The notes under the pieces: model-generated
The model's input: the letters and a program-made list of their open reading frames with translations, nothing else
Told to the model about the DNA's origin: nothing
Databases searched by the model: none
From: Arcobacteraceae bacterium
GTDB lineage: Bacteria; Campylobacterota; Campylobacteria; Campylobacterales; Arcobacteraceae
Direction of reading: 5' to 3'
Assembly: GCA_048268245.1 (NCBI GenBank)
Contig: JBLWVX010000003.1
Location: 94,530-158,529, forward strand
Length of the DNA stretch: 64,000 nt
Shown here: positions 3,857-43,292 of the stretch, in pieces
How the letters are laid out: each line of letters starts with the position of its first letter
Numbering within the stretch: the stretch's first letter is position 1
Position numbers and translations under genes: made by a program

Positions 3857-3960
3857 GCAAAATTATAACAAATTAAAATTTTACAAGATTTGAAAAGTGA
3901 GAAAAAAAGTATCAATGAATAAAATTTGTAACTTATTGACATAATAAAGTATAATATAAT

Positions 3961-4968: not shown

Positions 4969-5043
4969 GAAAGAATTGTATCTAAAAGTTTATTTGAAGA
5001 AGAAATGGAAGATAAAATGATTATAAATAGAAGAAAAAATCTT

Positions 5044-5772
5044 CTATTTACAAGTATCAATTACTGCATTTGCATTTGCATATAAGTATACTTCTACTCT
5101 TCTATTTAAACCCATATTTGTTTCATTTGTATTCGGTGCAACTGGTTTATCGTAAGAGCAACCTTTTGAGAAAATTTGATTTTTAATTCCAGAGTTATAA
5201 ATACTATTTCCTACATTTGAAGCTCTTTTCTCTGAAAGTGTTTTGTTATACTCATAGCTTCCTCTACTATCTGTATGTCCTACTACTTGAACTATAGTAT
5301 TTGGATATTTTTGTAAAACACCATTTACTTTTGTAATTTTATTAGTTGCACTTGGTGTTGGAATTGATGAGTTTGTAGCAAACATCATATCATCTCTAAA
5401 CATGATTTTTACATACTTATCTGTATATGATACAATTAAGTCTTGATTTGGATCAAGGGCTGCATTTGGGTCATTATTAACTGTGGTATTTAAACTATCA
5501 GCTACTTCTTTTGCTTGTTGGTCCATTCTATATCCAATATATCCACCAAGAGCAGCCCCTGCAAGTGCACCAACAGTTTTATTTCTACTTTTACTTCCTC
5601 CACCAATATTATTTCCTAAAGCAATACCAGCTATTGCTCCTATTGTTGTACCAATTATAGCTCTTTGATTATTGTCAATTGTTTGATTTCCTGTTGAACC
5701 TGATGTACATCCAGTAAGAACAGCAACTGCTGCAATAGATGATACAAAAGTTTTTAAGTTAAAATATCTCAT
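5044..5772 (-). CDS. OmpA-family lipoprotein with glycine zipper (YiaD-like)
   Basis: Lipobox LTGC, glycine zipper, GHTDSRG, LSEKRA, NRRVE. Confidence 0.9.
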   Translation of the reverse strand: MRYFNLKTFVSSIAAVAVLTGCTSGSTGNQTIDNNQRAIIGTTIGAIAGIALGNNIGGGSKSRNKTVGALAGAALGGYIGYRMDQQAKEVADSLNTTVNNDPNAALDPNQDLIVSYTDKYVKIMFRDDMMFATNSSIPTPSATNKITKVNGVLQKYPNTIVQVVGHTDSRGSYEYNKTLSEKRASNVGNSIYNSGIKNQIFSKGCSYDKPVAPNTNETNMGLNRRVEVYLYANANAVIDTCK

Positions 5773-5864
5773 TTTGAAACCTTTAATTTTTAGTCTATAT
5801 TATTTTAACATAAGTAGTGTGAAATAATTGTGTTAAAAATCGTAATTAATATGTAATATATTTG

Positions 5865-5873
5865 TGCTATAAT
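5865..5873 (+). promoter_or_regulatory. Extended -10 promoter for pyk (TGcTATAAT)
   Basis: Consensus match about 25 nt upstream of the GTG start, followed by an AAGGAG RBS. Confidence 0.65.
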
Positions 5874-5898
5874 ATTTTTAAGAAAAAAAGGAGAAACT

Positions 5899-7341
5899 GT
5901 GGAAAAAAGAACAAAAATTTTGGCAACATTAGGGCCATCAAGCCATAGTATAGAAGTGATAGAAGGTTTAATAAAAGCAGGTGCAAACATGTTTAGATTA
6001 AACTTTTCTCATGGAAGTCATGAGTATCACAAACAAACACTTGATAATATCAGAAAAGCAATGAAAAACTTAAATAAAACAGTTGGTGTTTTACAAGATA
6101 TCTCTGGACCAAAAGTTAGAATTGGAGATTTAAAAGAGCCTTTTGAATTACATAGAGGTGATGTAATCACTTTTTTAAAAGATGAGATAGTAGGATATAA
6201 ACAAGCTGATAAGAAATATGTTGTATCTATTAATTATCCAGATATTTTAAGTAAAGTAAAAATAGATGAATATATCTATTTATATGATGGAACAATTAGA
6301 GCAAAAGTTATTCAAACTGGTGATGAGGTTCAAGCAAAGATTGAAAACCATGGTATTTTATCATCAAGAAAAGGTGTAAACTTTCCTAATACAGTTATTG
6401 ATATTGATGTAATTACAAAAAAAGATGAAAAAGATATTGCATGGGGTGTTGAGAATCAAGTTGATTACTTTGCAATTTCATTTGTTCAAAATGCTAAAGA
6501 TATGAAAAAAGCAAGAAAGCTTCTACAAGGCTATAAAGGTAAATTAATAGCGAAAATTGAGAAGTTTGATGCAGTTGAAAATATTGATGAGATTATTGAA
6601 GAATCAGATGGTCTTATGGTTGCAAGGGGAGATTTAGGTATTGAAGTTCCTTATTATGATGTACCAACTATTCAAAAAATGCTTATTAAAAAAGCAAATA
6701 ATGTTGGTATGCCTGTAATTACAGCAACACAAATGCTTTTATCTATGACACATAACGAAAGAGCAACAAGAGCAGAGATCTCAGATGTAGCAAATGCAGT
6801 TCTAGATGGAACTGATGTTGTTATGTTAAGTGAAGAGAGTGCTGTTGGAGAAGACCCTATTAATGTTGTAGATACAATGAGTAATATTATTGCAAAAACA
6901 GAAGATATTTATAACTTTAATAAACAATCAAAATTTGATTATTTAGATCATTTTGATGTAATTCAAGCAACTGTTACAAAACTTGCAGATGATTTGGGAG
7001 CAAAGGGTATTTTAGCACTTACAAGTTCTGGTAAATCAGCAGTGAAAATGTCAAGATATAGACCAAGAACACCTATTTATGCATTTACTCATAAAAAGAA
7101 AATATTATCAGCCTTAACAGCTATTTGGGGTGTAAAACCTATTGGAACTATTAAAGAAGCACAAGCATCAAAAATGTTCCAAAAGATGCTTAAAGAACTT
7201 GATGCAAAAGGTTTCTTAGATAAAAGTGAGACTTACGTAGCAACAGTTGGTTATCCTGTTGGAATGCCAGGAAGTACAAATACTATTAAGATTTTAACTC
7301 CATCAGAAATCGAGTATTATTTAAACTTTAAAAGCAAATAA
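5899..7341 (+). CDS. pyk: Pyruvate kinase
   Basis: RTKILATLGP, RLNFSHG, MVARGDLGIE, ATQML, TRAEISDVANA. Confidence 0.98.
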   Translation: MEKRTKILATLGPSSHSIEVIEGLIKAGANMFRLNFSHGSHEYHKQTLDNIRKAMKNLNKTVGVLQDISGPKVRIGDLKEPFELHRGDVITFLKDEIVGYKQADKKYVVSINYPDILSKVKIDEYIYLYDGTIRAKVIQTGDEVQAKIENHGILSSRKGVNFPNTVIDIDVITKKDEKDIAWGVENQVDYFAISFVQNAKDMKKARKLLQGYKGKLIAKIEKFDAVENIDEIIEESDGLMVARGDLGIEVPYYDVPTIQKMLIKKANNVGMPVITATQMLLSMTHNERATRAEISDVANAVLDGTDVVMLSEESAVGEDPINVVDTMSNIIAKTEDIYNFNKQSKFDYLDHFDVIQATVTKLADDLGAKGILALTSSGKSAVKMSRYRPRTPIYAFTHKKKILSALTAIWGVKPIGTIKEAQASKMFQKMLKELDAKGFLDKSETYVATVGYPVGMPGSTNTIKILTPSEIEYYLNFKSK

Positions 7342-7372
7342 TAAGTAGAAGAGATTAACTCTTTTACTTATT
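7340..7372. terminator. Probable bidirectional terminator between pyk and the Cache kinase
   Basis: aataagtagaagag / ctcttttacttatt inverted repeat between convergent genes. Confidence 0.55.
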
Positions 7373-9319
7373 TAAAATAATTTGTAATAAAGCAGCTTTA
7401 TAATTTTGCCCATGACATTCAATTTGAGTGTTTTTAGCAGTAATTTTACCTTTCATATGACTTACAATAATAGTTCTTGTCATATATAATCCTATCCCTG
7501 TACCTTGCGATTGAAATTTTGTTGTAAAATATGGCTCAAAGACTTTATTAATAATTTCATCTTTTATACCACCTGCATTATCGTAAACTTCAATATATCT
7601 CTCATTGTCTTTTTCAAAAGCTTTTATTTTTATACATTTGATTTCTAATTCTTTTTCTAGTAATGCATCTTTTGAATTATTTAAAATATTTAAGATAGCT
7701 TGTGTTAGTTCATTTTCTAAGGTATAAAGTTCAATATTTTCATCAATTTCAAGTTTTATTTGAATCCCTTTATTTTTTAAACTTGCAGACATTAAGTTTA
7801 TAACTTTTTCAATTGTACTTTTTAGATTGATGCTTGTTTTAATTTTGTCTTTTTTAAAGAAGTTTCTAAAATCTTCAATAGTATTTGATAAGTGCTGTGT
7901 ATTTGATACAATTAAATCAAGGTTTTTATAAAGCTTTTCTTTATTCATAAGATTTAGTTCATCTTCAAATTTAGTACCGGAAGCTATTGTACTTATAGTT
8001 GATAAAGGTTGTCTCCATTGGTGGGCAATATTTCCTATCATTTCACCCATTGAAGCTAGTCTTGATTGTTGATTAAGCATTTCATCGGCTTTTCTCATTT
8101 TTAAAACTTGTTCTTTTACCTGTGATTCTAAAGATTCATTTAGCTTTTTTAGTTGATGGTTGTTTTCTTTTAGTTCATTTTCGTATTTTTTAAATTGTAA
8201 ATCTATTCTTCTAGATATTAATAAAAGCAAGATAATTAATAATAAACTTATAATAGAAGAAATTAAAATAATTTTATACTTTGCATCTTTTACTTCTTCT
8301 TCAAGTTTTAGTTTTTTCTTTTGTATTTCTTCTTGAATTTTAGTTGTGTATTGACCTGTTCCAATAACCCAATTTAACTTTGGTACTTTTTTTACAAAAG
8401 ATATCTTTTTAGATAGTTTTTCTGAAATATTATGACTAGTAGGTGTATATCCTAAGAATGAACCACCTTCAATAGAGGCTTTTTTTAAGATATTTTTGAT
8501 TACATTTTGCTCTATTTTTGAAAGTGTTTCTATTTTTTTACCAATAAAAGATTTATTTATATGAGATAAAGTAGTTCCTTCTTGATTAATTACAAATAAA
8601 TATTCATCTTTTTCATAACTTATTGTATCAATAATTCTTAATATTTGATGCTGTATCTTTTTATCAATATCTTCAATATACTTTGCAGTTCCTATATAAA
8701 TACCCAAAGGTTCAAAAAGTTTTACATATCCAAGTTTTTTCTCAATTCTATTGGTTTTTGGTTTTTGCCAATGCCAAGTTGTAAAACCTTCTTTTTTTGT
8801 TGAGACTATATTATTAAACTCTTGTATAAAATATTTACCTTCTTTATCTTGTAGATTGGAAAGAGTTTTTCCTACATGTGATGGGGTTTGAGGTTGCATA
8901 ATAACTTTATCATTTAAATCTATTATAAAAAAGTAGCCACTAGCATTTGAGTAAAACCTTTGAGGGTTTAAACTTTTTATAATTAGACTAAGGATTTCTT
9001 CTTTTGGTTTTGATTCATTTTGTAAATATATTTGTTTGATTGTTTTATATCCAATATTAACGATATTCTTGATATTGTTTTTTTCTTCAATAGTATTTAA
9101 ATTAGTTTGAGTTTCAATAAGTTTAATAATCCTATTTACTCTATTTTTTATTGTTTTTTTAATTTCTTCTACATAGTTTGTTTGAATATTTTCTATTTCT
9201 TCTTTAAACTCTTTATTTCCATAAGAAATAAATTCATAAGTTAGAATAGTTGAAGTTAAAATTACTGCCATAATAGGAAGGATTATGATCCAATATGTGA
9301 TATTGTTAAGTCGTCTCAT
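7364..9319 (-). CDS. Membrane sensor histidine kinase with tandem Cache domains
   Basis: Two TM helices, two Cache-like units (GYFFI...WHWQKP...KKLGY; YLFVI...WVIGTG), IAHQWRQPL, GTGIGLY. Confidence 0.9.
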   Translation of the reverse strand: MRRLNNITYWIIILPIMAVILTSTILTYEFISYGNKEFKEEIENIQTNYVEEIKKTIKNRVNRIIKLIETQTNLNTIEEKNNIKNIVNIGYKTIKQIYLQNESKPKEEILSLIIKSLNPQRFYSNASGYFFIIDLNDKVIMQPQTPSHVGKTLSNLQDKEGKYFIQEFNNIVSTKKEGFTTWHWQKPKTNRIEKKLGYVKLFEPLGIYIGTAKYIEDIDKKIQHQILRIIDTISYEKDEYLFVINQEGTTLSHINKSFIGKKIETLSKIEQNVIKNILKKASIEGGSFLGYTPTSHNISEKLSKKISFVKKVPKLNWVIGTGQYTTKIQEEIQKKKLKLEEEVKDAKYKIILISSIISLLLIILLLLISRRIDLQFKKYENELKENNHQLKKLNESLESQVKEQVLKMRKADEMLNQQSRLASMGEMIGNIAHQWRQPLSTISTIASGTKFEDELNLMNKEKLYKNLDLIVSNTQHLSNTIEDFRNFFKKDKIKTSINLKSTIEKVINLMSASLKNKGIQIKLEIDENIELYTLENELTQAILNILNNSKDALLEKELEIKCIKIKAFEKDNERYIEVYDNAGGIKDEIINKVFEPYFTTKFQSQGTGIGLYMTRTIIVSHMKGKITAKNTQIECHGQNYKAALLQIILNK

Positions 9320-9335
9320 ACCCTTCCTTTTCTTT

Positions 9336-10529
9336 TTAATAAACTTTTGAGTATAACTCCAATAAAATTATTTGTTTGTCAATTTTATATATTTTTGCAT
9401 CTAAAAGTTTAATATCTCTAGAGTTTTTAAGTGTGTCATAATCACTCTGAGTCTTAATTTGTGCCTCATTTTCTTCTTTAATAATTTTTAGAATAGAGTT
9501 ATAAAGGCTTAAATCTTCACTAGTAATTTTTAATCTGTCTTCTAGCATATTAAGTTTATCTAGTTTTGTTTTAAAAAAACTTTTTTCATCATCAATCTTA
9601 TTTTTTAGGTTTAGCTTTGATTTTAAGTATTCGATTCTTTTACTTTCTATATCATTTAAGGCTCTAGTGTCTAATGGCATAGTAACAGATAAACCATATG
9701 TTTGTTTATTCGTTTGTCCATTTGATTTTGGCTCACCATCTGTAAAATGAGTTTTTGAATAGTTATAATATACATTTACACTAGGTAAATATCTAGCCAT
9801 TGTCATATGTGAATAATTTTTATCTTTTTTTATCGCAGCTTTTGCTTTTTCAAGTTCTATATTCTTTTCTAAATAATCATCTTTAGATATAAGTTCAAAT
9901 TTAGGAAGTTTGAAATCTGAATATTTCCCTGAAGCTATATTTTCAAAGTTATTGATAAGTTCTTGTTTTTGATATTTTAAATCAATTAAAGTGTGTTTTG
10001 AACTATTTAAAGTAAGTAGGGCGTTATCTAAAAATGAACTATCTAAGAAGCCATTTAAAACTTGTTCTTTTTTTCTTTCAACATCTATTTTTGCATTTGC
10101 TAAAGATAGTTTTGTTTTCTCAATAGTTAAATCAAGTTTTTTAATTTGAAAAAGAAGATTATATGCATCTTTTATTAGATTTTTTCTTTGTTGTTGAATT
10201 TGAAGGTTTGCATAATCATGAGTTGAATCAGCATATTTTATAGCTTGATAAATCCCACCACTTTGAAAGATTGGTTGATTTATAGAAATTAGTGAAGTTT
10301 CACCTTTATATTCATCTCCAAGGTTCTTTTTAAACTGCAAAGTTATTGGATTTATCCAATCTTTTTTTAATTTAGAACTATCTTCTTTAGCTTGTTGTGT
10401 TTCTAAATCAAAAGTTTTTTTTCTACTATCTGATAAAATACTTTGGTCTAAATTGTTGTTTGCAAATAGATTTACACCAATTAAACTACATAAAAGTAGT
10501 TTAATTTTATTTGATTTTAGAAAGTGCAT
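9336..10529 (-). CDS. TolC-family outer membrane efflux protein
   Basis: Signal peptide, SINQPIFQSGG, YLPSVNV...GLSVTMPLD, coiled-coil repeats; start uncertain. Confidence 0.75.
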   Translation of the reverse strand: MHFLKSNKIKLLLCSLIGVNLFANNNLDQSILSDSRKKTFDLETQQAKEDSSKLKKDWINPITLQFKKNLGDEYKGETSLISINQPIFQSGGIYQAIKYADSTHDYANLQIQQQRKNLIKDAYNLLFQIKKLDLTIEKTKLSLANAKIDVERKKEQVLNGFLDSSFLDNALLTLNSSKHTLIDLKYQKQELINNFENIASGKYSDFKLPKFELISKDDYLEKNIELEKAKAAIKKDKNYSHMTMARYLPSVNVYYNYSKTHFTDGEPKSNGQTNKQTYGLSVTMPLDTRALNDIESKRIEYLKSKLNLKNKIDDEKSFFKTKLDKLNMLEDRLKITSEDLSLYNSILKIIKEENEAQIKTQSDYDTLKNSRDIKLLDAKIYKIDKQIILLELYSKVY

Positions 10530-11691
10530 TTTCTAGCCTTTTGAAGCCTTCATTTATTTCTTCTTTTGAAATCGTTAAAACAGGTAACATTCTAAGTGTA
10601 TTTTTTCCAGCTCTTAAAATTAATAAACCTTCATTAAATGATTCTTTGATTATTGCTGCTAATGTATCTGCATCTTTTACTCTAAGTCCTCTCATTAATC
10701 CAAGTCCCACGCTATCACTAAATACATCTTTATTTGCTTCATAAACTTTGTTTAACTTGTCTTGGAAATATATTATTGTTTCATCTAGTTTTCCAGAATC
10801 TTTGTAAGTATCTAAAATCTCTAAAACTTTCAGTGATGCAGCTGTACTTAAATAGTTTCCTCCAAAAGTAGAACCATGATCACCATATGTAAATAAGTCT
10901 TTATGTGTTGTAATAACTGCTCCAATTGGAACACCACCACCTAGGCCTTTTGCCATAGTAATAATATCTGGTTCAATTTCATAAAGGTTAGTAGCTAAAA
11001 ATTCACCAGTTCTGTATGCACCTGTTTGTACTTCATCAATTATAAGTAAAATATCTTTTTGTTTTAAGTATTTTGCTAGTTTTTGAATCTCTTCTTTATC
11101 AAAAGGTTGAACTCCACCTTCACCTTGAACAAGTTCAATCATAACAGCAACTGTTTGCTCATCAATTGAGTTATAAATGTCTTCAATTTTATTATCATAT
11201 GAAAAACCATCTGGATAAGGTGAAAAGTTAGGTGAATGCATAGAGCTTTGACCTGTAGCTTTTACCGTAGTAATTGTTCTACCATGGAAAGAGTGCTCTA
11301 AAGTAATAACCTTATATCTTTTGTTTTCAAATTTAGTTTCACCATACTTTCTAGCAAGTTTAATAGCTCCCTCGTTCGCTTCAGCACCACTATTTGCGAA
11401 AAATGTTGCAACATCCATACCTGAAAGTTTTGCAATTTTTTCACCTAATTTTGCTTGTGGTTCAATAGCATAAAGGTTTGATATATGTGTAATATTACTT
11501 ACTTGATTATAAATAGCATCTGCTACTTCTTTATTACCATGTCCAACAGAAACTACTCCAATACCTGATGTGAAATCTATATAATCTTTATTGTTTTCAT
11601 CAAATAAAGTTGCATTTATACCTTTTTTGAAGTTTACATAGTTTCTTGCATAAGTTTGAAGTACATAATCTTTATCTAATTGTTCTAACAT
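10507..11691 (-). CDS. argD: Acetylornithine aminotransferase
   Basis: NSGAEANE, SFHGRT, IDEVQTG, MAKGLGGG, HGSTFGGN. Confidence 0.93.
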   Translation of the reverse strand: MLEQLDKDYVLQTYARNYVNFKKGINATLFDENNKDYIDFTSGIGVVSVGHGNKEVADAIYNQVSNITHISNLYAIEPQAKLGEKIAKLSGMDVATFFANSGAEANEGAIKLARKYGETKFENKRYKVITLEHSFHGRTITTVKATGQSSMHSPNFSPYPDGFSYDNKIEDIYNSIDEQTVAVMIELVQGEGGVQPFDKEEIQKLAKYLKQKDILLIIDEVQTGAYRTGEFLATNLYEIEPDIITMAKGLGGGVPIGAVITTHKDLFTYGDHGSTFGGNYLSTAASLKVLEILDTYKDSGKLDETIIYFQDKLNKVYEANKDVFSDSVGLGLMRGLRVKDADTLAAIIKESFNEGLLILRAGKNTLRMLPVLTISKEEINEGFKRLENALSKIK

Positions 11692-32581: not shown

Positions 32582-32929
32582 ATGGAAAATTTACCAAACT
32601 GCCCAAAATGTGGGAGCGAATATACTTACGAAGATATGGATTTATATATATGTCCAGAGTGTGCCTATGAATGGTCAAAAGATGCTTCTTTAGAAGAAGA
32701 TGAAGACAAGCTGATTGTAAAAGATGCTAATGGAGCTATTTTAGAAGATGGGGATGATGTTACTGTTATCAAAGACTTAAAAGTAAAAGGTAGTTCATCT
32801 GGTATTAAAGTTGGTACTAAAGTAAAAGGTATCAGACTAGTTGAGGGTAATGATGGTCATAATATTGACTGTAAGGTTCCAGGTGTTGGGGCTATTAAAC
32901 TTAAACAAGAGTTTGTTAAAAAAGCTTAA
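32582..32929 (+). CDS. PhnA/YjdM zinc-ribbon protein
   Basis: [27 protein letters not shown]. Confidence 0.9.
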
Positions 32930-33062: not shown

Positions 33063-33605
33063 ATGAGAATAAATGTAGAAGATACACTATTTTGTTTAGT
33101 AGATGTACAAGAAAAGCTATTTCCTCACGTAACAAATAATGAAGAGATTGAAAAAAAACTAATTACATTAATTAAAGGTTTAAAAGTTCTAGAGGTTCCT
33201 TTTATAGTAAATGAACAGTATAAAAAAGGAATAGGAGAGACAATTCCTTCTTTAAAAGAATTAGTAGTTGATTATCCACATTTTGAAAAAACAACATTTT
33301 CTTGTTGTAAAAATGAACCAACAATGGAAGCTATTAAGAATAGTGGAAAGAAGAATGTAATTGTTGCTGGAATTGAGACACATGTATGTGTATTGCAAAC
33401 TTGTATTGATTTATTAGAAGCTGGACTTCAACCAATACTTGTTACTGATTGTGTAACTTCAAGAAAGCAAAATGATACTGATGTAGCAATTCAAAGATTA
33501 GTTCACGCAGGTGTTATTCCAACTACATATGAATCAATTTTATTTGAATTAACACTAAATGCAAAAAATCCAGTATTTAAAGAAATTTCAAAATTAGTTA
33601 AATAA
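33063..33605 (+). CDS. Isochorismatase-family hydrolase (YcaC/ISOC-like)
   Basis: VDVQEKL, EKTTFSC, GIETHVCVLQT. Confidence 0.9.
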   Translation: MRINVEDTLFCLVDVQEKLFPHVTNNEEIEKKLITLIKGLKVLEVPFIVNEQYKKGIGETIPSLKELVVDYPHFEKTTFSCCKNEPTMEAIKNSGKKNVIVAGIETHVCVLQTCIDLLEAGLQPILVTDCVTSRKQNDTDVAIQRLVHAGVIPTTYESILFELTLNAKNPVFKEISKLVK

Positions 33606-33641
33606 AACCTATTTATTAATATTAAAAGAATTAATTTGTTA

Positions 33642-33650
33642 TGGTATAAT
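33642..33650 (+). promoter_or_regulatory. Extended -10 promoter for the luxP-like operon
   Basis: TGgTATAAT about 35 nt upstream of the ATG. Confidence 0.6.
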
Positions 33651-33685
33651 AATTGTATTTTAAACTTATAAATTAAGGGAAAATA

Positions 33686-34786
33686 ATGAAAAAATCCATT
33701 GTCAAACTGATTCTTTTAATGTGCTCTATCAGTTTTTTAAATGCTGATAACTCAAAATACTTCGATATTGATGAATATATACAATTCACTAGTCAAGAGA
33801 AGATTACAACTGATTTCATAAGCCAAATACAAAAAGATGCTATCAAAATAAAACAGCAAAATAAAAAAATAAAAATAGTTTTAGTATATCCTGGTAAACA
33901 GTTAACTGATTATTGGATGAAAAGTAAAGTTTCATTTGAGAAAAGACTTGATGAATTAGGTATAGATTATGAGTTGGTTCTTCATTTTACAAAGCCCCAT
34001 GTTGAAACAAGAGTTCAGTCTAAATTACTTTTAAAAGCTATAAAAGATAATACAGACTATTTAGTATTTGTATTAGATGCAAGTAAACATGCAAAGTTTA
34101 TTGAGCGAATTATAAGTAGAGAAAAACCAAAATTAATTTTACAAAATATAACTACTCCTTTAAGAAAATGGCAAAAGAGTCAACCCTTTTTATATGTAGG
34201 TTTTGATCATATGATAGGTAGTCAGATGCTTGCAGATTACTATATTAAAAAAACAAAAGGTGAGGGTAAATATGCTGTTTTATATACGGCAAATGGTTAT
34301 GTAAGTTATATGAGAGGAACAAAGTTTATTGATTATGTTTCTAAAAACTCTAATCTAAAAGTTGTCCATGAATACTTCACAAATACTAGTAAAGAAAAAG
34401 CTAGACTGGCAACTCTTGATTTATTAAAGCAAGATAATGATATTAAATTTATATATGCTTGTTCTACTGATATTGCTTTAGGTGTAATTGAAGCACTAAA
34501 GCAAAAAGATTTAGTAGGAAAAGTTTTAGTAAATGGATGGGGTGGAGGAAGTAGTGAACTTCAAGCTATTCAAGATGGTTTTATGGATGTTACAGTTATG
34601 AGAATGAATGATGATAATGGTGTAGCAATGGCTGAAGCAATAAAACTTGATTTAGAAGGTGAAAAAGAAAAAGTACCTACTATTTTTTCAGGAGAGTTTG
34701 CACTTGTAGAAAAAGGAATTGATAAAAATAAGTTAGAGCAACTTAAACAAAGAGCTTTTAGGTATACACAAGATAATGCAAAATAA
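33686..34786 (+). CDS. luxP: LuxP-like autoinducer-2-binding periplasmic protein
   Basis: Motifs match Vibrio LuxP as I recall it: VYPGKQLTDYW, LILQNITTP, QPFLYVGFDH, FIYACSTD, NGWGGGS.EL, VMRMNDD, RAFRY. Confidence 0.88.
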   Translation: MKKSIVKLILLMCSISFLNADNSKYFDIDEYIQFTSQEKITTDFISQIQKDAIKIKQQNKKIKIVLVYPGKQLTDYWMKSKVSFEKRLDELGIDYELVLHFTKPHVETRVQSKLLLKAIKDNTDYLVFVLDASKHAKFIERIISREKPKLILQNITTPLRKWQKSQPFLYVGFDHMIGSQMLADYYIKKTKGEGKYAVLYTANGYVSYMRGTKFIDYVSKNSNLKVVHEYFTNTSKEKARLATLDLLKQDNDIKFIYACSTDIALGVIEALKQKDLVGKVLVNGWGGGSSELQAIQDGFMDVTVMRMNDDNGVAMAEAIKLDLEGEKEKVPTIFSGEFALVEKGIDKNKLEQLKQRAFRYTQDNAK

Positions 34787-36908
34787 AAAACTGTCACTAT
34801 CAATAATAAATAGTTTATTGCTATTACTATTTTTTATTATATTAACTACTGCTGTACTTTTTTCAAGTTATATGAATACACAAAAAGTAGTAGATAAAAA
34901 TATTAGTGACTATTTTAATCAAACATTTAATATTACTAAACTTATTATTGAAAATGAACAAAAGAGTTTACAAGAGATAGTTACAAATGTGACAAATGAG
35001 TTTAAAAGTATATCTAAATTAGATAATCAATATGAAGTTACATATAAATTAGAAACATTGTCTTATGTGGACACTGTAGATTTAGTTTTTTTTGAAATGG
35101 ATGGAGAGTTTTATGATTATAGTACTTCATTATTTGATTCGAAACTGATTATTGAAAAAATCAAACTAATGGACTCATCAATAGATAATAGAATTATTAG
35201 AGTAAAGGTTGAGAATAAAAATATCATTTTGATGATAAATAAAGATAACATTATAGATGAATTAACAGGAAGAGTTAAAGCAAAAGTTTATGGAGCTAAA
35301 GTTTTAAATGATAACTTTAGTTTACTTGAGCATATAAAAACTAGAGCTAAGCTTTTTGATATATATATTTACTTTGATAAAGAACTAATTGCTTCTACAA
35401 ATAATAAAGAGAATATTGATTTAAATGCATTTAGTAAAAAAGGAATATTTGTAGATGAAGATACAATTTATTCTAGTATACCTTATGATATATATGATAG
35501 TAAGAAGTTAGAAGTTGTATATGTGAAAAAAAATAGTACTTTTGAAATACTAAAGAATAATTTTACTCAACAAGCTTTTTTATTAGTACTTTTTGTGATT
35601 TTTTGTTTTATTCTTTTATACTATTTATCTAATAGATTTATCATTAAACCTTTTAGTCAGCTTGCAGATTATGCAAACAAGGTTAAAGACCAAAAAGATA
35701 TAGAGTATAAAAATACAAATGTTCTTGAGTTTGATAGTTTTGCCCATGAGTTAAATGATATTATTTCTGAATTAAGAGATGTAAAAGAACAATACTCAAG
35801 GGCTATTGATGGAGTTCAAGATGGTTTATGGGATGTAGATTTAAAGAATAAAAAAGTATTTTATTCTCCAAGATTTAAAACTATGTTAGGTTATGATTTA
35901 GAAGATAAGATTATATATAAAAGTTTTTGGCAGAGAAGTATTCATAAAAAAGATTATAAAAAGACATTGCTTGAACTAAAAAATCATATAAATAAAAAGT
36001 CAGACTTATTTGAAATGGAATATAGATTTAAATGTAAAAATAGTTCATATAAATGGATAAAAATTAGAGGAAAACTATTCTATGATTCAAATAATAAACC
36101 AAACAGATTTATTGGTTTTCACACTGATATAAATGATTTAGTTTTATTGGAAAAACAAAATCAAGAAAAAGAAAGAATGTTATATCAACAATCAAAACTA
36201 GCCTCAATGGGTGAAATGATTGGTAATATTGCTCATCAGTGGAGACAGCCTCTAACTATTATGAGTGTTATCTCTTCTTCAATGAGTATGCAATTACAAT
36301 TAGATAAATTAAATAAAAAAAAAGCACAAGAAAATTTAGAGAAGCTTTTAAAAAATATTGATTATTTATCATCTATTATAGACAAATTTAGAAACTTTTT
36401 TAATCCTAATAATAAAGTAGAAGAGTTTTATATAGATGAAGTTATTGCAGAAAATTTAGTGATATTTGAGTCTTCATACAAATCAAGTAATATACAGTTA
36501 ATACTAGACTTAAAAAATATAAAAATAGTAGGTTTTAAATTTGAACTTATGCAAGTTGTTATAAACATAATAAACAATGCAAAAGATGCTTTAGTATCTA
36601 AAATGTCTATAAGAGATTTAAATAAATTTATATTTATAAAATCATATATAACTAATAACAATTTGCTATTAGTAATCACTGATAATGCAGGTGGTATACT
36701 TAGTGAAATCTCTGAGAAAATATATGAACCATATTTTACAACAAAACATCAAAGTCAAGGTACTGGACTTGGTCTTTATATGTCAAATGAAATTATAAAA
36801 AAACACTTTAAAGGTACTTTGTCAAATAAAACTATAGAGTATGAATATGAAGGAAATAAATATAAAGGTGAAGAGTTTAAAATAGAAATACCACTTTTAT
36901 GTGAGTAG
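34776..36908 (+). CDS. Sensor histidine kinase: LuxQ-like periplasmic domain, PAS, HisKA/HATPase, no receiver
   Basis: Two TM helices; IIDELTGRV...VLNDNFSLLEHIK resembles LuxQ ILDPSTGEV...VLDNNFALMEKLK; PAS DGLWD...YSPRFKTMLGY; IAHQWRQPL; overlaps luxP by 11 nt. Confidence 0.85.
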   Translation: MQNKKLSLSIINSLLLLLFFIILTTAVLFSSYMNTQKVVDKNISDYFNQTFNITKLIIENEQKSLQEIVTNVTNEFKSISKLDNQYEVTYKLETLSYVDTVDLVFFEMDGEFYDYSTSLFDSKLIIEKIKLMDSSIDNRIIRVKVENKNIILMINKDNIIDELTGRVKAKVYGAKVLNDNFSLLEHIKTRAKLFDIYIYFDKELIASTNNKENIDLNAFSKKGIFVDEDTIYSSIPYDIYDSKKLEVVYVKKNSTFEILKNNFTQQAFLLVLFVIFCFILLYYLSNRFIIKPFSQLADYANKVKDQKDIEYKNTNVLEFDSFAHELNDIISELRDVKEQYSRAIDGVQDGLWDVDLKNKKVFYSPRFKTMLGYDLEDKIIYKSFWQRSIHKKDYKKTLLELKNHINKKSDLFEMEYRFKCKNSSYKWIKIRGKLFYDSNNKPNRFIGFHTDINDLVLLEKQNQEKERMLYQQSKLASMGEMIGNIAHQWRQPLTIMSVISSSMSMQLQLDKLNKKKAQENLEKLLKNIDYLSSIIDKFRNFFNPNNKVEEFYIDEVIAENLVIFESSYKSSNIQLILDLKNIKIVGFKFELMQVVINIINNAKDALVSKMSIRDLNKFIFIKSYITNNNLLLVITDNAGGILSEISEKIYEPYFTTKHQSQGTGLGLYMSNEIIKKHFKGTLSNKTIEYEYEGNKYKGEEFKIEIPLLCE

Positions 36909-36917
36909 TATTTTAGT

Positions 36918-36968
36918 AATAAAAAAGGGGATAGATAGGAATTCTATTCCATCTATCCCCTTTTTATT
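36918..36968. terminator. Strong bidirectional terminator between the kinase and prpF
   Basis: aaaaaggggatagat...atctatcccctttt with flanking A and T runs. Confidence 0.8.
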
Positions 36969-36982
36969 TTAAAGTATTTAGA

Positions 36983-38161
36983 TTATACGTCCATAGTTCC
37001 AGCTGGAACGTGAACATTACCTTCCATAATAATTCTAGCACTTCTACTCATAGAAGCTTTTTGAACTGTAAGTTTATCACCATCTTTAGTAATTGTAGCA
37101 CCAACTTTAATAGCACCACTTGGATGACCAAATGTTACAGTATCTCTTTCCCCTCCACCAGCAGCAAGGTTAACTAAAGTTCCTGGAATAGATCCTGCAA
37201 CACCAATAGCAACAGAAGCAGTTCCCATCATAGCATGGTGTAATTGTTGCATAGATAATGCTCTTACATGTAAATCCATCTCACTTGCCTTTACTTCTTT
37301 ACCAGAAGATGTAATAAAGTCTTGTGCAGGAGATACAAATGCAATTTTCGGAGTGTGTTGTTGAGTTAATGCATCACTTGCATCTTTCATAACACCCATT
37401 TTTAAAGCACCTGCTATTCTGATTTTTTCAAACTTTTCAAGTGCTGCTGTATCAGAGTTAATATCACCTTGAAGCTCAGTTCCTTTATATCCGATTTCAT
37501 CAGCATTTACAAATACTGTTGGAATACCAGCAGTAATCATAGTAGCTTTTAAAGTTCCAATTCCTTCAACTTCTAAATCATCTACTAAGTTTCCAGTAGG
37601 GAATAACTCTTCACTAGGATCAACTGGCTCAACGAACTCTAATACAATCTCTTCAGCAGGGAAAGCAACACCATCAATTTCGTAGTCACCCATTTCTTTA
37701 ACCATTCCATCTTCCATTGTTACATAACAAAGAATAGTTTTTTTGATATTTGCTTGCCAGATTCTTACACAACAAACACCATTTTCAGGTACATTGTCAA
37801 CTAAACCTTCTTTGATAGCAAAAGGACCAACTGCTGAACTTAAGTTACCACAGTTTCCACTCATATCAACAAAATCTTTGTCAATTGCAACTTGACAGAA
37901 GTAGTAATCTACATCATGATTAGGAACATCAGATTTACCAACTAAGATAGCTTTTGAAGTAGATGAAGAAGCTCCACCCATTCCATCCATTTGTTTTTTA
38001 TAAATATCAGGAGAACCTACAATTCTTTGTAATAGTTTGTCTCTTTTTCTTCCATCTTCTTGTGCTTCTTTTGGAAGGTCTGCAATATTAAAGAAAGTAC
38101 CTTTTGAAGTACCACCTCTCATATATGTTGCTTTTACTTTAAATTGTGGTTTGTAAGCCAT
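36983..38161 (-). CDS. prpF: 2-methylaconitate isomerase PrpF
   Basis: YMRGGTSKG, GNCGN, HHAMMGT, GHPSG, SRSAR. Confidence 0.95.
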   Translation of the reverse strand: MAYKPQFKVKATYMRGGTSKGTFFNIADLPKEAQEDGRKRDKLLQRIVGSPDIYKKQMDGMGGASSSTSKAILVGKSDVPNHDVDYYFCQVAIDKDFVDMSGNCGNLSSAVGPFAIKEGLVDNVPENGVCCVRIWQANIKKTILCYVTMEDGMVKEMGDYEIDGVAFPAEEIVLEFVEPVDPSEELFPTGNLVDDLEVEGIGTLKATMITAGIPTVFVNADEIGYKGTELQGDINSDTAALEKFEKIRIAGALKMGVMKDASDALTQQHTPKIAFVSPAQDFITSSGKEVKASEMDLHVRALSMQQLHHAMMGTASVAIGVAGSIPGTLVNLAAGGGERDTVTFGHPSGAIKVGATITKDGDKLTVQKASMSRSARIIMEGNVHVPAGTMDV

Positions 38162-38264
38162 AATAATATTCTCCTTTTAGTTTTAAATAAAATATTTATT
38201 AAAAAAATCTTTGATTTCTTTAACAAATATTTTAAGGGCAAAGCCCCTAAAATATTGAGAGTTA

Positions 38265-40862
38265 TTACTTAGTTTCAGCAACAACGTCTTTAGCGAATTT
38301 TTGTAAAATACCACCATTTTTGTAAACTTCAACTTCAGCAGAAGTATCTAATCTACATAAAACATCGAATTTAACAACTTCACCATTTGCTCTTGTCATA
38401 ACAACTGTTAAGTCACATCTTGGAGTGATTTCACCTTCGATATCAAAAGTTTCAGAACCATCAATCTCGTAAGTAAATCTTGTATCACCTTCTTTGAATT
38501 GTAATGGTAATACACCCATTCCAACTAAGTTAGTTCTGTGAATTCTTTCAATTGATTCAGCAATAAGAACTTCAACACCTGCAAGTCTAACACCTTTAGC
38601 AGCCCAGTCTCTTGATGAACCTTGACCATAGTTAGTACCAGCAACGATAATTAATGGTTGTTTTCTATTGTTATATTCTTCAATAGCTTCCCACATTCTA
38701 GATTCTTTACCTTCTGGCATAATCTTAGTTAATGAACCTTGTTTAACATTTCCATTTTCATCTTTAACCATTTCGTTAAATAGTTTTGGATTTGCTAATG
38801 TAGCTCTTGATGCAGTATTGTGGTCACCTCTATGCGTTGCATAAGAGTTAAGATCAGGAATTGGTAATCCCTTAGAAATACAATACTCACCAGAAGCTGA
38901 ATCTGGTAAAATAGCATTTGATGGTGATAAGTGATCCGTAGTGATGTTATCAGGGAATACACCTAATGGTCTCATACCTTTTAATGCTGGCATTTGCATA
39001 TATTCATCTTCCCAATATGGAGGTTTGTTAATATATGTAGAGTTAGTATTCCATTTGTAGAATGGATCTACTTTAACACCTGATAATCCATCTCTTGCGA
39101 ACATTGGATCATAAATATTGTTATACATTTCAGGTCTAACGAACTCTTTTTCAACAGCGTCAATCTCTTCATCAGATGGCCATAAATCAGCTAATTTAAT
39201 GTCATTACCATTTGCATCTTTACCTAAAGAGTCATTTTCAATATCAAATCTAACAGTACCAGCTAATGCATATGCAATAACTAATGCAGGAGATGCTAAG
39301 AATGCTTCTTTTACGTATGGGTGAATTCTTCCATCAAAGTTTCTGTTCCCAGATAATACAGCAGTAGAGTAAATATCTCTATCTACAACTTCTTGTTGGA
39401 TTTTTGGATCTAAAGCACCTGACATACCATTACAAGTAGTACAAGCAAAACCAACTACACCAAATCCTAATTTTTCCATCTCAGGTAATAATCCAGCTTC
39501 TTTTAAATAAACTTCAATTACTTTTGAACCTGGTGCTAATGAAGACTTAACCCATGGTTTTCTTTGAAGACCAAGCTCGTTTGCTTTCTTAGCTAATAAA
39601 CCAGCAGCAATAACGTTTCTTGGGTTTGAAGTATTTGTACATGAAGTAATAGCTGCAATTAAGATACCACCATCAGGAATTAAATCACCTTCTTGAGTCC
39701 ACTCTTTTACGATACCTTCTTCTTTTAAAGTAGAAGTTGGAACTAATTTATGAGGTTTAGATGGACCTGCTAATGATCTAGTAACTTTAGATAAATCAAA
39801 TTGAATAGTTCTAGCGTATGTAGCATTTTCGAATTGGTCAGCCCATAATCCATTTGCTTTAGCGTAAGCTTCAACTAATTCACATTGTTTCTCTTCTCTA
39901 CCTGTTACTCTTAAGTAAGAAATTGTTTGCTCATCAATAGCGAACATACCAGCAGATGCACCATATTCTGGAGTCATATTTGCAATAGTAGCTCTATCAC
40001 CTAAGTTTAGGTATTTAATACCTTCACCGAAGAACTCTAAGTAAGCAGAGATAACATTGTTTTCTCTTAAGAATGAAGTCATAGATAATGCAATATCAGT
40101 TGCAGTAATTCCAGGAGCTCTTTTACCTACAATTTCAACACCAATGATTTCAGGAACTCTCATGTATGATGGGTTACCTAACATTACGTTTTCAGCTTCT
40201 AATCCACCAACACCAACAGCAATAACACCAAGTGCATCAACGTGTGGAGTATGTGAGTCTGTACCAACTAATGTATCAGGTGAAGCGATACCATCATCTA
40301 AGTGAACAACTGGAGACATTTTCTCTAAGTTGATTTGGTGCATAATACCATTTCCTGGAGGGATAACATCAACATTGTTAAATGCTTCTTTAGTCCAGTT
40401 AATAAAGTGGAATCTATCAGCATTTCTTCTATCTTCAATATCTCTATTTTTTTGGAAAGCATCTGGATCATATCCACCACACTCTACTGCTAATGAGTGG
40501 TCAACGATTAATTGAGTTGGAACAACTGGGTTAACTTTATCTGGGTTACCACCTTTAGAAGCTACTGCTTCTCTAAGTCCTGCTAAATCAACAAATGCAG
40601 TTAATCCTAAGATATCGTGACAGATAACTCTTGATGGGAACCAAGGGAAATCTTTATCTGTTCTTTTTTCAATTAATTGTACTAATGAATCTTTTAAATC
40701 TTCACTAGGACACTTTCTAATTAAGTTTTCAGCTAAAACTCTTGAAGTATAGTTTAGTTTTTCAAATGAACCTGGAGTGATATCTTCTACAGCTGCTTTA
40801 ACATCGTAGTATTTAACACCATCTACACCATCAAGGTTTTTAAGATATTTTTCGTTTGTCAT
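38265..40862 (-). CDS. acnD: Fe/S-dependent 2-methylcitrate dehydratase AcnD
   Basis: RVICHDILG, AAITSCTNTSNPRN, FACTTCNGMSG, GQGSSRDWAAKG; next to prpF. Confidence 0.93.
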   Translation of the reverse strand: MTNEKYLKNLDGVDGVKYYDVKAAVEDITPGSFEKLNYTSRVLAENLIRKCPSEDLKDSLVQLIEKRTDKDFPWFPSRVICHDILGLTAFVDLAGLREAVASKGGNPDKVNPVVPTQLIVDHSLAVECGGYDPDAFQKNRDIEDRRNADRFHFINWTKEAFNNVDVIPPGNGIMHQINLEKMSPVVHLDDGIASPDTLVGTDSHTPHVDALGVIAVGVGGLEAENVMLGNPSYMRVPEIIGVEIVGKRAPGITATDIALSMTSFLRENNVISAYLEFFGEGIKYLNLGDRATIANMTPEYGASAGMFAIDEQTISYLRVTGREEKQCELVEAYAKANGLWADQFENATYARTIQFDLSKVTRSLAGPSKPHKLVPTSTLKEEGIVKEWTQEGDLIPDGGILIAAITSCTNTSNPRNVIAAGLLAKKANELGLQRKPWVKSSLAPGSKVIEVYLKEAGLLPEMEKLGFGVVGFACTTCNGMSGALDPKIQQEVVDRDIYSTAVLSGNRNFDGRIHPYVKEAFLASPALVIAYALAGTVRFDIENDSLGKDANGNDIKLADLWPSDEEIDAVEKEFVRPEMYNNIYDPMFARDGLSGVKVDPFYKWNTNSTYINKPPYWEDEYMQMPALKGMRPLGVFPDNITTDHLSPSNAILPDSASGEYCISKGLPIPDLNSYATHRGDHNTASRATLANPKLFNEMVKDENGNVKQGSLTKIMPEGKESRMWEAIEEYNNRKQPLIIVAGTNYGQGSSRDWAAKGVRLAGVEVLIAESIERIHRTNLVGMGVLPLQFKEGDTRFTYEIDGSETFDIEGEITPRCDLTVVMTRANGEVVKFDVLCRLDTSAEVEVYKNGGILQKFAKDVVAETK

Positions 40863-41052
40863 TATTTATATCCATTTTTAAATTTTGTTAAGAACCTTAG
40901 TTCTATTTATGTTTCCAAACAGTGCTAAATTTTTTATTGTAATTTATCCACTGTATGTGGCACTTGTGTTGTGATAGCCTCTAAAAAGAGGCTATTTTAT
41001 TTTTTATGTAAGTTTTTTATGTTTCTTGTGCTTTTTAAAAAAGAAGAAAGAA

Positions 41053-42162
41053 TTAAGATCTATCTTCTAATGCTACGAATTCTCTTGGCTCAGGTCCAGT
41101 ATACTCTGAACTTGGTCTGATAATTCTGTTGTTCGCTCTTTGTTCAAATGCGTGAGCAGCCCATCCAGCAGCTCTTGACATAATGAATAATGGAGTGTAG
41201 TATAATCTTTCGATTTCCATGTAGTGGTAAATTAATCCACCGAAGAAGTCGATATTATCTGGTAAACCTTTTTCAGCTTTTACTTTGTCTCTAATTGCTT
41301 TTGCAATATCAAATAATTTCGGGTCAGAAGTTTCTAATTCTTTTAACTCTTTAGCTAATTCGAATCCGATAGGAGATCTTGGATCTACTTCTCTATATAC
41401 TCTATGTCCGAATCCCATAATTTTTTCTTTTTTAGCGAATAATTCATCTACAGATTTTAATGCGTGATCAACATCGTCAAACTCTAATACAAATTTAATT
41501 GCTACTTCATTAGCTCCACCATGTAAGTGACCTTTTAATGTACCAATACCAGTAGTCATACAAGAGTAGATGTCTGATAATGTAGAAGCAGTAATTCTGT
41601 TTGCAAATGTAGATGCGTTGAACTCATGCTCAGCATATAAAGTTAACATTGCATTCATAGCTTTAACTTCAACTGGTAATGGAGTAGTTTCTTTTAATCT
41701 TTCTACAATGTAACCAGCAATTGTATTTTCTTCAGATGCTAATTCAATTTCTTTTCCATTTACATGCCAGTGGTGCCAGTAAACTAAGAATGATGGGAAT
41801 GCACCTAATAATCTAGTGATTTTGTCCATTTGATCAGAGAAATCTTCTGCTTCTGGTTCAATACAACCTAAAGCTGAAGTTGCAGTCTTCATAACGTCCA
41901 TTGGGTGAGATGAAGCTGGAATTGCTTTTAAAACTTCTTTAACAGAAGCTGGTAATTGTCTACCTGCAATAATTTTTCTTCTGAACATTTTAAGTTCTTT
42001 TGCGTTTGGTAATTCTCCAACTAATAATAAATATGCTACCTCTTCAAAATCAGCTTTTAAAGCTAAATCTGCAATATCATAACCTCTATAGTTAAGACCA
42101 TTACCTAATCCACAAGTACAAATTGATGATTGACCTGCTGTAACACCTGCTAAACCACTCAT
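41053..42162 (-). CDS. prpC: 2-methylcitrate synthase
   Basis: YRGY, AEHEFNASTF, LHGGANE, MGFGHRVY; within the prp operon. Confidence 0.92.
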   Translation of the reverse strand: MSGLAGVTAGQSSICTCGLGNGLNYRGYDIADLALKADFEEVAYLLLVGELPNAKELKMFRRKIIAGRQLPASVKEVLKAIPASSHPMDVMKTATSALGCIEPEAEDFSDQMDKITRLLGAFPSFLVYWHHWHVNGKEIELASEENTIAGYIVERLKETTPLPVEVKAMNAMLTLYAEHEFNASTFANRITASTLSDIYSCMTTGIGTLKGHLHGGANEVAIKFVLEFDDVDHALKSVDELFAKKEKIMGFGHRVYREVDPRSPIGFELAKELKELETSDPKLFDIAKAIRDKVKAEKGLPDNIDFFGGLIYHYMEIERLYYTPLFIMSRAAGWAAHAFEQRANNRIIRPSSEYTGPEPREFVALEDRS

Positions 42163-42232
42163 TTCTCTCTCCTTAAATTTTGTGTTTTAATTAAAATTTT
42201 ATATTCGTGCTTTTGTTTTAAGGCGAAGCTAA

Positions 42233-43117
42233 TTACTTAGCTTTACCTTTTGAAAACAATTCGTCCATTTTTTGCTCATAATCATGGTACCCTAACATAT
42301 CGTAAAGTTCCATTCTTGTTTGCATAGTATCTAATACACCTTCTTGAGTTCCTTTATCTTTTAACTCTTGGTATACGTTTAATGCAGCTTTATTCATTGC
42401 TCTGAATGCTGATAATGGGTAAAGAACCATATCAATACCAACTTCTGCTAATTCTTCAGTTGTGAACATTGGAGTTGCACCAAATTCAGTAATGTTTGCT
42501 AATACAGGTACAGACATTTTGTCTGTAAACTCTTTGTATTCTTTTAATGTGTGAATTGCTTCAGCGAAGATTGCATCTGCTCCAGCTTCAACGTAAGCTA
42601 ATGCTCTGTCGATTGCAGCTTGTTGCCCTTCAGAAGCGTGTGCATCAGTTCTAGCGATGATATAGAAATCTGGGTCTAATTGCATTTTTGCATCAACCGC
42701 AGCTCTAATTCTGTCACACATTTCTTCTGTAGATACTAACTCTTTATTAGGTCTGTGTCCACATCTTTTTGCAGCAACTTGATCTTCAATGTGAAGTCCA
42801 GCTGCACCAGATCTAATAAATTCTTTAACAGTTCTAGCAACGTTGAATGCGTGTCCCCAACCAGTATCAGCATCTACGATAACAGGAGTATCACAAATAG
42901 AAGTAATTCTTCTAATATCAATACATACATCCTCAATCATAGTCATACCTAAATCTGGTAAACCATAAGATGCATTTGCAATTCCTCCACCTGAAAGGTA
43001 AATTGCCTTATGTCCTACTTTTGTAGCTTGTAATGCTTGGTATGCATTAATTGTTCCTACGATTTGTAAAGGAGACTCTTCCTTAAGTGCTTCTCTAAAT
43101 TTTTTTCCTGCGCTCAT
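42233..43117 (-). CDS. prpB: Methylisocitrate lyase
   Basis: [26 protein letters not shown]; start moved to MSAGKK. Confidence 0.96.
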
Positions 43118-43292
43118 ACACATCCTTTAATTTGAATTGAGTACTATTATACATGATTTAGATATATGTACAGTGTATGATTTTTGTAAGAGAAAACACA
43201 ACTTTTTTTTAAAAATATAGTAAATGTACAATATTTGTTCTTATGTTTTAAAATGGTACAATATTTGATAAAGTAAATTTTAAGGAATGTAA

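Follow-up and report, generated by a model that had tools for sequence, protein, structure and literature searches.

The closest described relative of the gene pair reported here is LuxP-LuxQ of Vibrio harveyi/campbellii (structures 1JX6, 1ZHH and 2HJ9; family model NF041947), in which the periplasmic autoinducer-2 (AI-2) receptor LuxP is coupled to the membrane kinase LuxQ, whose receiver domain signals through LuxU and LuxO. A 2008 survey described LuxPQ as restricted to Vibrionales; it noted lesser matches among Oceanospirillales and, for two deltaproteobacteria, LuxP-like genes, did not find lsrB in either Helicobacter or Campylobacter and recorded C. jejuni as having no luxP (PMC2561040). 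More distantly, TorT-TorS, XylFII-LytS and HptA-HptS share with the pair studied here a transporter-less periplasmic binding protein that docks on a kinase sensor domain (PMC8050422); those systems, however, use other binding-protein families, ligands and sensor folds, whereas the genes described here are of LuxP and LuxQ type. We analyzed a luxP-like gene (gene 1) and an overlapping LuxQ-like kinase gene (gene 2) in a 64,000-nucleotide stretch of DNA, hereafter the window, from an Arcobacteraceae bacterium of the phylum Campylobacterota (assembly GCA_048268245.1, contig JBLWVX010000003.1, positions 94,530 to 158,529). We regard it as likely that the two genes encode a LuxPQ-type AI-2 receptor belonging to marine Arcobacteraceae. 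The genes and domains that carry this assignment are as follows (window positions; aa = amino acids).

33686..34786, + strand: putative luxP orthologue, 366 aa, predicted periplasmic protein of the AI-2-binding type
34776..36908, + strand: LuxQ-like non-hybrid sensor histidine kinase, 710 aa, from its open reading frame (ORF) and domain matches
34872..35564, + strand: periplasmic LuxQ-type tandem-PAS (dCache-like) sensor domain, aa 33-263 of the kinase, from Pfam, structure matches, AlphaFold2 (AF2) and Foldseek
35781..36140, + strand: cytoplasmic PAS domain, aa 336-455 (PAS_3 67.5 bits, PAS 32.8 bits)
36207..36896, + strand: transmitter, with HisKA at aa 478-541 and HATPase_c at aa 590-707 (H-box IAHQWRQPL, His487)

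The LuxP orthologue and its ligand pocket

Gene 1 matched the V. harveyi LuxP structures (1JX6, 1ZHH, 2HJ9 and 4YP9) with an E-value of 9e-97 over residues 25-362, the full mature length, and grouped with LuxPs in a phylogenetic tree. The next structural match after LuxP, a ribose-binding protein, followed at E 1.7e-15. In Pfam the protein belongs to Peripla_BP_4 (93.7 bits), while among NCBIfam models no LuxP-specific one matched and the best hits, allose and ribose binders, lay far below their cut-offs. The N-terminus (MKKSIVKLILLMCSISFLNA) is hydrophobic and resembles a Sec signal peptide, as read directly from the translation without a signal-peptide predictor.

For the ligand pocket, we compared seven residues of V. 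harveyi LuxP, which we take to be AI-2 contacts described in the original structure paper. Six of the seven are identical in the window protein, namely Q72, W77, N154, R210, T261 and R306 (V. harveyi Gln77, Trp82, Asn159, Arg215, Thr266 and Arg310), and the seventh, Ser79, is replaced by T74. They lie in the aligned motifs YPGKQLTDYW (Gln, Thr-for-Ser, Trp), QNITTP, MRG, CSTD and MRMNDD. An initial annotation, made from the window alone, had proposed both the full-length alignment and the retention of the borate-AI-2 contacts with Ser79 changed to Thr, and the comparison with V. harveyi LuxP bore out both. Asn159, Arg215 and Arg310 are named as AI-2 contacts in two papers (PMC6452917, PMC3794749), and the remaining residues are said to line the LuxP pocket in a docking study (PMC9920117). 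Across 68 aligned LuxPs from Campylobacterota, Desulfobacterota, Alpha- and Gammaproteobacteria and others, Vibrio sequences included, W77, N154, R210, T261 and R306 were invariant, and the positions of Q72 and S74 were conserved in at least 90%, the window protein carrying T74. As judged from its sequence, gene 1 is thus a LuxP orthologue that has kept the AI-2-borate pocket.

Two other identities were considered for gene 1. We rejected an ATP-binding cassette (ABC) transport binding protein on gene context: luxP has an isochorismatase-like gene and the LuxQ-like kinase gene as neighbors, and no ABC permease or ATPase genes flank it among the window ORFs or in syntenic loci. Alternatively, a LuxP-family member could sense a different ligand, such as a furanose or diol, borated or not, and would then be a nutrient or environmental sensor, not a quorum receptor. 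The Ser79-to-Thr change would be compatible with such a role, as would the sugar-binding Peripla_BP_4 superfamily, with weak matches to allose, ribose and xylose binders, and the patchiness of LuxP in a family in which luxS is near-universal (see below). Nevertheless, we consider a different ligand improbable, given that none of the seven pocket positions shows more than a conservative change and five of them are invariant, that both arginines named as borate/AI-2 contacts in the papers are retained, and that a gap of about 80 orders of magnitude in E-value separates LuxP from the nearest non-LuxP binder.

The LuxQ-type kinase and its host-type transmitter

The kinase encoded by gene 2 has the order transmembrane (TM) segment, LuxQ-periplasm, TM segment, PAS, HisKA and HATPase, with no receiver. 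The Pfam search for LuxQ-periplasm (PF09308) returned 37.0 bits against a cut-off of 25.7, and this is the sole such domain in the genome. By hydropathy, the TM segments (approximately aa 6-32 and 264-288) bracket the sensor domain, which was matched by the V. cholerae LuxQ structure 3C30 (E 6.4e-6). An AF2 model of the first 300 residues, built on a 68-row alignment, reached a predicted local distance difference test score (pLDDT) of 90.1 and a predicted template modeling score (pTM) of 0.81. With this model, each of the top six Foldseek matches in the PDB was a LuxQ periplasmic domain (E-values between 1.6e-11 and 1.5e-10; TM-score by target 0.51-0.68), and dCache domains ranked after LuxQ at E 1e-7 or weaker. 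The fold is therefore of LuxQ type. A word-index search with the periplasmic 300 aa returned 14 proteins, the named ones all being close relatives; more distant relatives were reached through loci anchored on LuxP.

Compared with the Vibrio system, the pair shares a luxP gene upstream of, and coupled to, a kinase of TM/LuxQ-periplasm/TM/PAS/HisKA/HATPase order, and a luxS gene in the genome. The whole kinase is collinear with the NCBIfam model NF041947, LuxQ_Vibrio (residues 8-707 against 5-696 of 843), but scored 89.8 bits and thus below the equivalog cut-off of 1200. It further differs from Vibrio LuxQ in lacking the C-terminal receiver and in having HQWRQPL instead of an HELRTPL-like H-box, and its LuxP falls in a separate clade.

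To the question of a direct contact, a predicted complex between LuxP and the periplasmic domain scored 0.33, while the best of three controls scored 0.01; the value may reflect likeness to the solved complexes 1ZHH and 2HJ9. In the calibration, 116 of 157 solved complexes came up to the acceptance mark, as did 2 of 215 mismatched pairs, and scores of at most 0.60 at the mark comprised 18 of the 157 solved complexes and both of the mismatches that passed. The prediction runs agreed in at least 89% of contacts, with a partner pLDDT of at least 83.

The transmitter has a different affinity from the sensor. Its HisKA and HATPase_c domains matched Pfam with 28.5 and 47.0 bits, respectively; the box IAHQWRQPL begins at residue 485, and the H-box, the N-box NIINNAKDA, DNAGG, YEPYFTTK and GTGLGL could all be read intact in the translation. 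A tblastn search with aa 455-710 gave 61 matches in the same genome, and the matches listed included 22 strong paralogues with 133-233 bits and 35-47% identity, compared with 20-68 bits for LuxQ-like kinases of other phyla. The HQWRQPL box was present in 14 of 14 Campylobacterota partner kinases and in none of 57 from other phyla, 31 of which carry an HE.RTP-type box; the genome as a whole contains 49 H.W[RK].PL boxes. By these comparisons the kinase is chimeric in the evolutionary sense, with a transmitter of the host lineage. The LuxQ-like periplasmic motif, the PAS domain, the Campylobacterota-style IAHQWRQPL transmitter and the missing receiver domain (no Response_reg match in Pfam) had all been read from the translation at the outset, and each was recovered here by domain search or, for the lineage of the transmitter, by sequence comparison, the first also by fold.

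Descent and chromosomal setting

Using E of 1e-60 or better as the threshold for presence, LuxP was found in 37 of 184 Arcobacteraceae genomes, representing 10 of 22 genera; the largest genus, with 44 genomes, had none. When the phylum was sampled evenly, 5 of 401 genomes contained LuxP, only two of them among the 377 outside Arcobacteraceae. A quick IQ-TREE analysis of 80 LuxPs, with a midpoint root only and several rows of deviant composition, placed 18 Campylobacterota LuxPs and the window protein on one side of a branch (Shimodaira-Hasegawa-like approximate likelihood ratio test, SH-aLRT, 98), apart from the Vibrionaceae clade. The nearest named relatives of the window are Arcobacter roscoffensis and Arcobacter sp. 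YIC-464.

The chromosomal position is equally consistent. The full order dnaX, dsbA-like, hemC, isochorismatase, luxP and luxQ, followed by prpF and acnD, was observed in 12 of 18 Campylobacterota loci, and two further loci (L023 and L092) show the same gene order as far as their contigs reach. This slot was seen in loci titled Arcobacter, Poseidonibacter, Halarcobacter and Marinarcus, and of 14 Campylobacterota loci, 13 have luxP and luxQ ORFs that overlap, sharing 1-17 nt. Because the Campylobacterota LuxPs form a separate clade and occupy one syntenic slot across several genera, the pair appears to be inherited and not a recent import: it is an old resident of one chromosomal slot, either with later losses or after one early gain.

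These data bear directly on the possibility that the pair was acquired horizontally in recent times, from Vibrio or some other gammaproteobacterium, and re-fused to a local kinase. Such an event would account for the differing affinities of sensor parts and transmitter described above, and for four genomes of the LuxP-free largest genus in which the isochorismatase gene adjoins prpF, with no luxPQ and gaps of approximately 70-1130 bp. The tree and the synteny led us to reject a recent transfer from Vibrio, and we regard any recent import as very improbable: the Campylobacterota branch excludes the Vibrionaceae, within the limits of a quick, midpoint-rooted search; the same slot recurs in the four genera; the GC content of the segment (0.25-0.28) equals that of its surroundings in a generally AT-rich window (GC 0.24-0.34); and the HQWRQPL architecture is common to all Campylobacterota partners scored. 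Of the initial proposal that an AI-2 module had been grafted onto the host network, the part that implies old domain shuffling stands, and the part that implies recent import does not.

A further alternative is that the pair is a decaying or silent remnant, with an inactive kinase and a LuxP that has ceased to signal. The patchy distribution would suit this, as would a relative that lacks luxQ and the fact that no partner regulator could be named (both discussed below). However, both ORFs are intact in the relatives aligned (58-88% identity for LuxP and 34-78% for the whole kinase), the H-box, N-box, DNAGG and GTGLGL motifs are all present, a promoter block is kept in the nearest relatives, and pocket residues are invariant. 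We therefore hold decay to be highly unlikely.

The elements that delimit the gene pair in the window are the following.

33622..33650, + strand: promoter-like site, TTAAAA, 17-nt spacer and extended -10 element TGgTATAAT at 33642-33650
33675..33679, + strand: ribosome-binding site AAGGG, 6 nt 5' of the luxP ATG, read from the sequence
36921..36969, no strand assigned: bidirectional intrinsic terminator in common with the convergent prpF gene, an A-run, the hairpin GGGGATAGAT...ATCTATCCCC and a T-run

On its own, the TGgTATAAT match proves nothing, because promoter-like sites are no commoner here than in shuffled sequence (26 observed in a region scan, 30.1 expected from shuffles). In a seven-sequence alignment, however, the three nearest relatives (L015, L016 and L017) retain the block TTAAAA-N17-TG(G/T)TATAAT. 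The two ORFs are co-directional and overlap by 11 nt (ATGCAAAATAA). Folding of 36905-36975 revealed a hairpin of -28.5 kcal/mol (z -7.28; equaled by 0 of 200 shuffles) between the convergent luxQ-like and prpF genes, preceded by the A-run and followed by the T-run; a pattern-based terminator scan gave 0 sites by its own criteria and missed this hairpin. The initial annotation had described a self-contained unit with its own TGnTATAAT promoter, an 11-nt gene overlap and a strong terminator. The overlap follows from the ORF coordinates and the terminator from folding, and the promoter sequence is present and kept in relatives, without an excess over chance.

Several neighboring features were noted in passing. 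On the minus strand, 36983-43123 holds the convergent prpF- and acnD-like genes, named from their translations without a family search, and then two more same-strand ORFs. Across the family, prpF identity is 80-95%, compared with 58-88% for luxP and 34-78% for luxQ, so that the neighbors are far better conserved. A small PhnA-like zinc-ribbon ORF at 32582-32929, flanked by hemC and the isochorismatase-like gene, is confined to the window and the two relatives nearest to it (L015 and L016); the other syntenic loci lack it at this position. DNA near-identical to window positions 33600-36970 (0.86-0.94 of sampled words) occurs in oyster and mollusc metagenome contigs from several studies; the 24 runs listed with such DNA include no RNA run, which is not evidence either way on expression. 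Finally, one Poseidonibacter metagenome-assembled genome (MAG) carries three luxP copies (L018, L027 and L060). The L060 copy lies outside the syntenic slot amid receiver genes, with a 127-aa receiver immediately upstream, a receiver-HATPase gene immediately downstream and, in addition, a receiver-PAS-kinase-CheX gene, an arrangement that looks like a multi-step relay.

Signal output, and LuxP partners in other bacteria

The genome search for the Vibrio relay and for the signal synthase covered luxS, luxU and luxO. An intact luxS was found (191.8 bits), and since the cell should be able to make AI-2, self-made AI-2 is plausible. All 37 LuxP carriers have luxS, but so do 181 of the 184 Arcobacteraceae genomes; luxS is therefore not specific to LuxP carriers and, being near-universal while LuxP is patchy, is no argument for signaling. 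Nothing LuxO- or LuxU-like turned up in the genome: the best Sigma54_activat match was 37 bits, in AAA-type ORFs and not in a LuxO-type sigma-54 activator, and histidine phosphotransfer (Hpt) domains occurred only inside ORFs of 715 and 1010 aa, none being free-standing. A search for Qrr RNAs found no match in the genome and was likewise silent in control genomes, so it is uninformative. Because the kinase has no receiver domain and no LuxU or LuxO was found, we infer that a direct kinase-to-regulator step takes the place of the Vibrio relay.

The kinase is an orphan. Although the genome holds 77 receiver domains, 34 kb separates the kinase from the nearest one on its contig, and the syntenic Arcobacteraceae loci contain no receiver ORF within 6 kb, in agreement with the early observation that no response regulator is adjacent. 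It shares this state with much of its class, 28 of the 49 HQWRQPL-class kinases having no receiver within 3 kb and 21 having one, and with its closest transmitter paralogues (contigs C20 and C3). On contig C20, four HQWRQPL kinases are clustered at 1400-11200, and no receiver is present within 32 kb. Among the four is the one whose transmitter is most similar to that of the LuxQ-like kinase (233 bits).

Taken together, we propose that secreted LuxP would bind borated AI-2 in the periplasm, where it would sit on the tandem-PAS sensor domain of the kinase that gene 2 encodes. Ligand binding would then alter autophosphorylation at His487, most likely lowering kinase activity if the analogy with Vibrio holds, and the phosphoryl group would pass directly to a response regulator encoded elsewhere.

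A number of observations weigh against this proposal. The system is dispensable in the family, as 147 of 184 genomes lack LuxP. In Arcobacter sp. 31_11_sub10_T18 (L035), luxP is kept and prpF stands where luxQ is expected; here (L035:6001-8333) luxP occupies its usual slot with prpF about 70 nt after it, and luxQ has apparently been lost, leaving an orphan LuxP. Within the pocket, Ser79 is Thr in the window, albeit by a conservative change. The periplasmic domain shares only 14-19% of its residues with Vibrio LuxQ and its Pfam score of 37 bits is modest, and the complex prediction supports the LuxP-kinase contact weakly. In HisKA kinases, an acidic residue after the His and a Thr or Asn four residues on are linked to phosphatase activity. 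HQWRQPL has neither, and for this reason a Vibrio-like switch from kinase to phosphatase may not apply here. Moreover, receiver searches on the contig and in the syntenic loci named no cognate regulator.

To place the pair among its relatives, LuxPs were collected broadly. A first search gave 1375 clusters at E 1e-40 or better, and a pattern scan of one genome per species gave 210 stretches with a relative. The best 80 came from Arcobacteraceae, Desulfobacterota, Stappiaceae, Terasakiella, Thalassobaculaceae, Oceanospirillaceae, Vibrionaceae and others. A luxP ORF was called in 79 loci; in 67 of these, a large gene (at least 594 aa) starts at most 600 nt downstream, and LuxQ-periplasm was above cut-off in 40 of the 42 partners scanned. 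By output, these 42 comprised 19 non-hybrid kinases, 13 hybrid kinases (with or without Hpt), six GGDEF-EAL proteins, two SpoIIE proteins, one methyl-accepting chemotaxis protein (MCP) and one without an output domain. As non-hybrid kinases account for 19 of the 42, the receiver-less partner is the commonest state outside Vibrionaceae. The window pair thus resembles other marine pairs (Desulfobacterota, Stappiaceae, Terasakiella, Oceanospirillaceae) in having LuxP followed by a LuxQ-periplasm gene, while those pairs differ in output.

Among the individual loci, GGDEF-EAL outputs were seen in Stappia, Roseibium, Oceanospirillum, Marinobacterium, Neptuniibacter and a Desulfovibrio, SpoIIE/PP2C phosphatase outputs in two Desulfobacterota and the MCP output in Candidatus Vecturithrix (among L029, L030, L031, L045, L049 and others). 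Receiver genes directly follow the pair in some loci outside Arcobacteraceae, for example L050, L033 and L048. In a MAG titled Neptunomonas (L087/L089), LuxP is identical to the protein from Vibrio sp. J1-1 and is accompanied by an 858-aa Vibrio-type LuxQ, probably because the contig was mis-binned or was transferred very recently. The longest branch of the tree (1.05) belongs to a LuxP-like gene with only short ORFs downstream, on a contig titled Peptostreptococcaceae (L056).

Database names already record homologues; the initial annotation had allowed that genome surveys might note them. Halarcobacter bivalviorum AXH11323.1, which falls in the same clade of the first search and is 64% identical to the window LuxP, is named 'Autoinducer-2 (AI-2) receptor LuxPQ, periplasmic binding protein LuxP' in UniRef, and JGI records name homologues 'autoinducer 2-binding protein LuxP'. 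The other Arcobacteraceae loci of its clade have the same slot and the same kinase of approximately 705-710 aa with PAS and HQWRQPL, differing in sequence divergence only; the papers searched contained no experimental characterization of any of these homologues. In the literature, luxP/luxQ have been described from Desulfobacterota and other MAGs in a cold-seep preprint. Our search found no paper linking LuxP with Arcobacteraceae, although the supplements of that preprint, which lay outside the search, may list taxa; nor, among the papers listed, did it find one connecting luxPQ or AI-2 with Halarcobacter or Poseidonibacter, or a receptor report for Epsilonproteobacteria. The AI-2 module had initially been presented as unusual. 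It is a real variant, but a less unusual one than supposed, in view of the 37 carrier genomes, the frequency of non-hybrid partners and the homologue already named.

In summary, we read the pair as a real LuxPQ-type sensor with a variant, lineage-specific and non-hybrid output, which appears to be inherited within marine Arcobacteraceae. Tentatively, and with slightly more doubt than confidence, we propose beyond this that LuxP-based AI-2 sensing could be an old vertical trait of marine Arcobacteraceae and the first canonical AI-2 receptor in Campylobacterota, with direct kinase-to-regulator signaling and possibly with regulators shared with other orphan HQWRQPL kinases. LuxP plus LuxQ-periplasm would then be a portable AI-2 cassette found across phyla with at least five outputs (kinase, hybrid kinase, cyclic di-GMP turnover, PP2C phosphatase and chemoreceptor). 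The value of the finding is limited in that databases already name the homology, pairs of this kind occur commonly among marine bacteria and function is deduced from homology. If it is true, however, AI-2 would be genuinely sensed far beyond Vibrio, a point of weight as the debate on AI-2 as a real signal outside Vibrio has long hinged on the apparent absence of receptors. About one-fifth of Arcobacteraceae species genomes combine luxS with a LuxP that has an intact AI-2-borate pocket and is coupled to a kinase typical of these bacteria. Given the variety of outputs elsewhere, it seems that one input module has been reused for kinase, cyclic di-GMP, phosphatase and chemotaxis control, and in Arcobacteraceae AI-2 signaling would be directly testable in cultivable, mostly non-pathogenic marine relatives.

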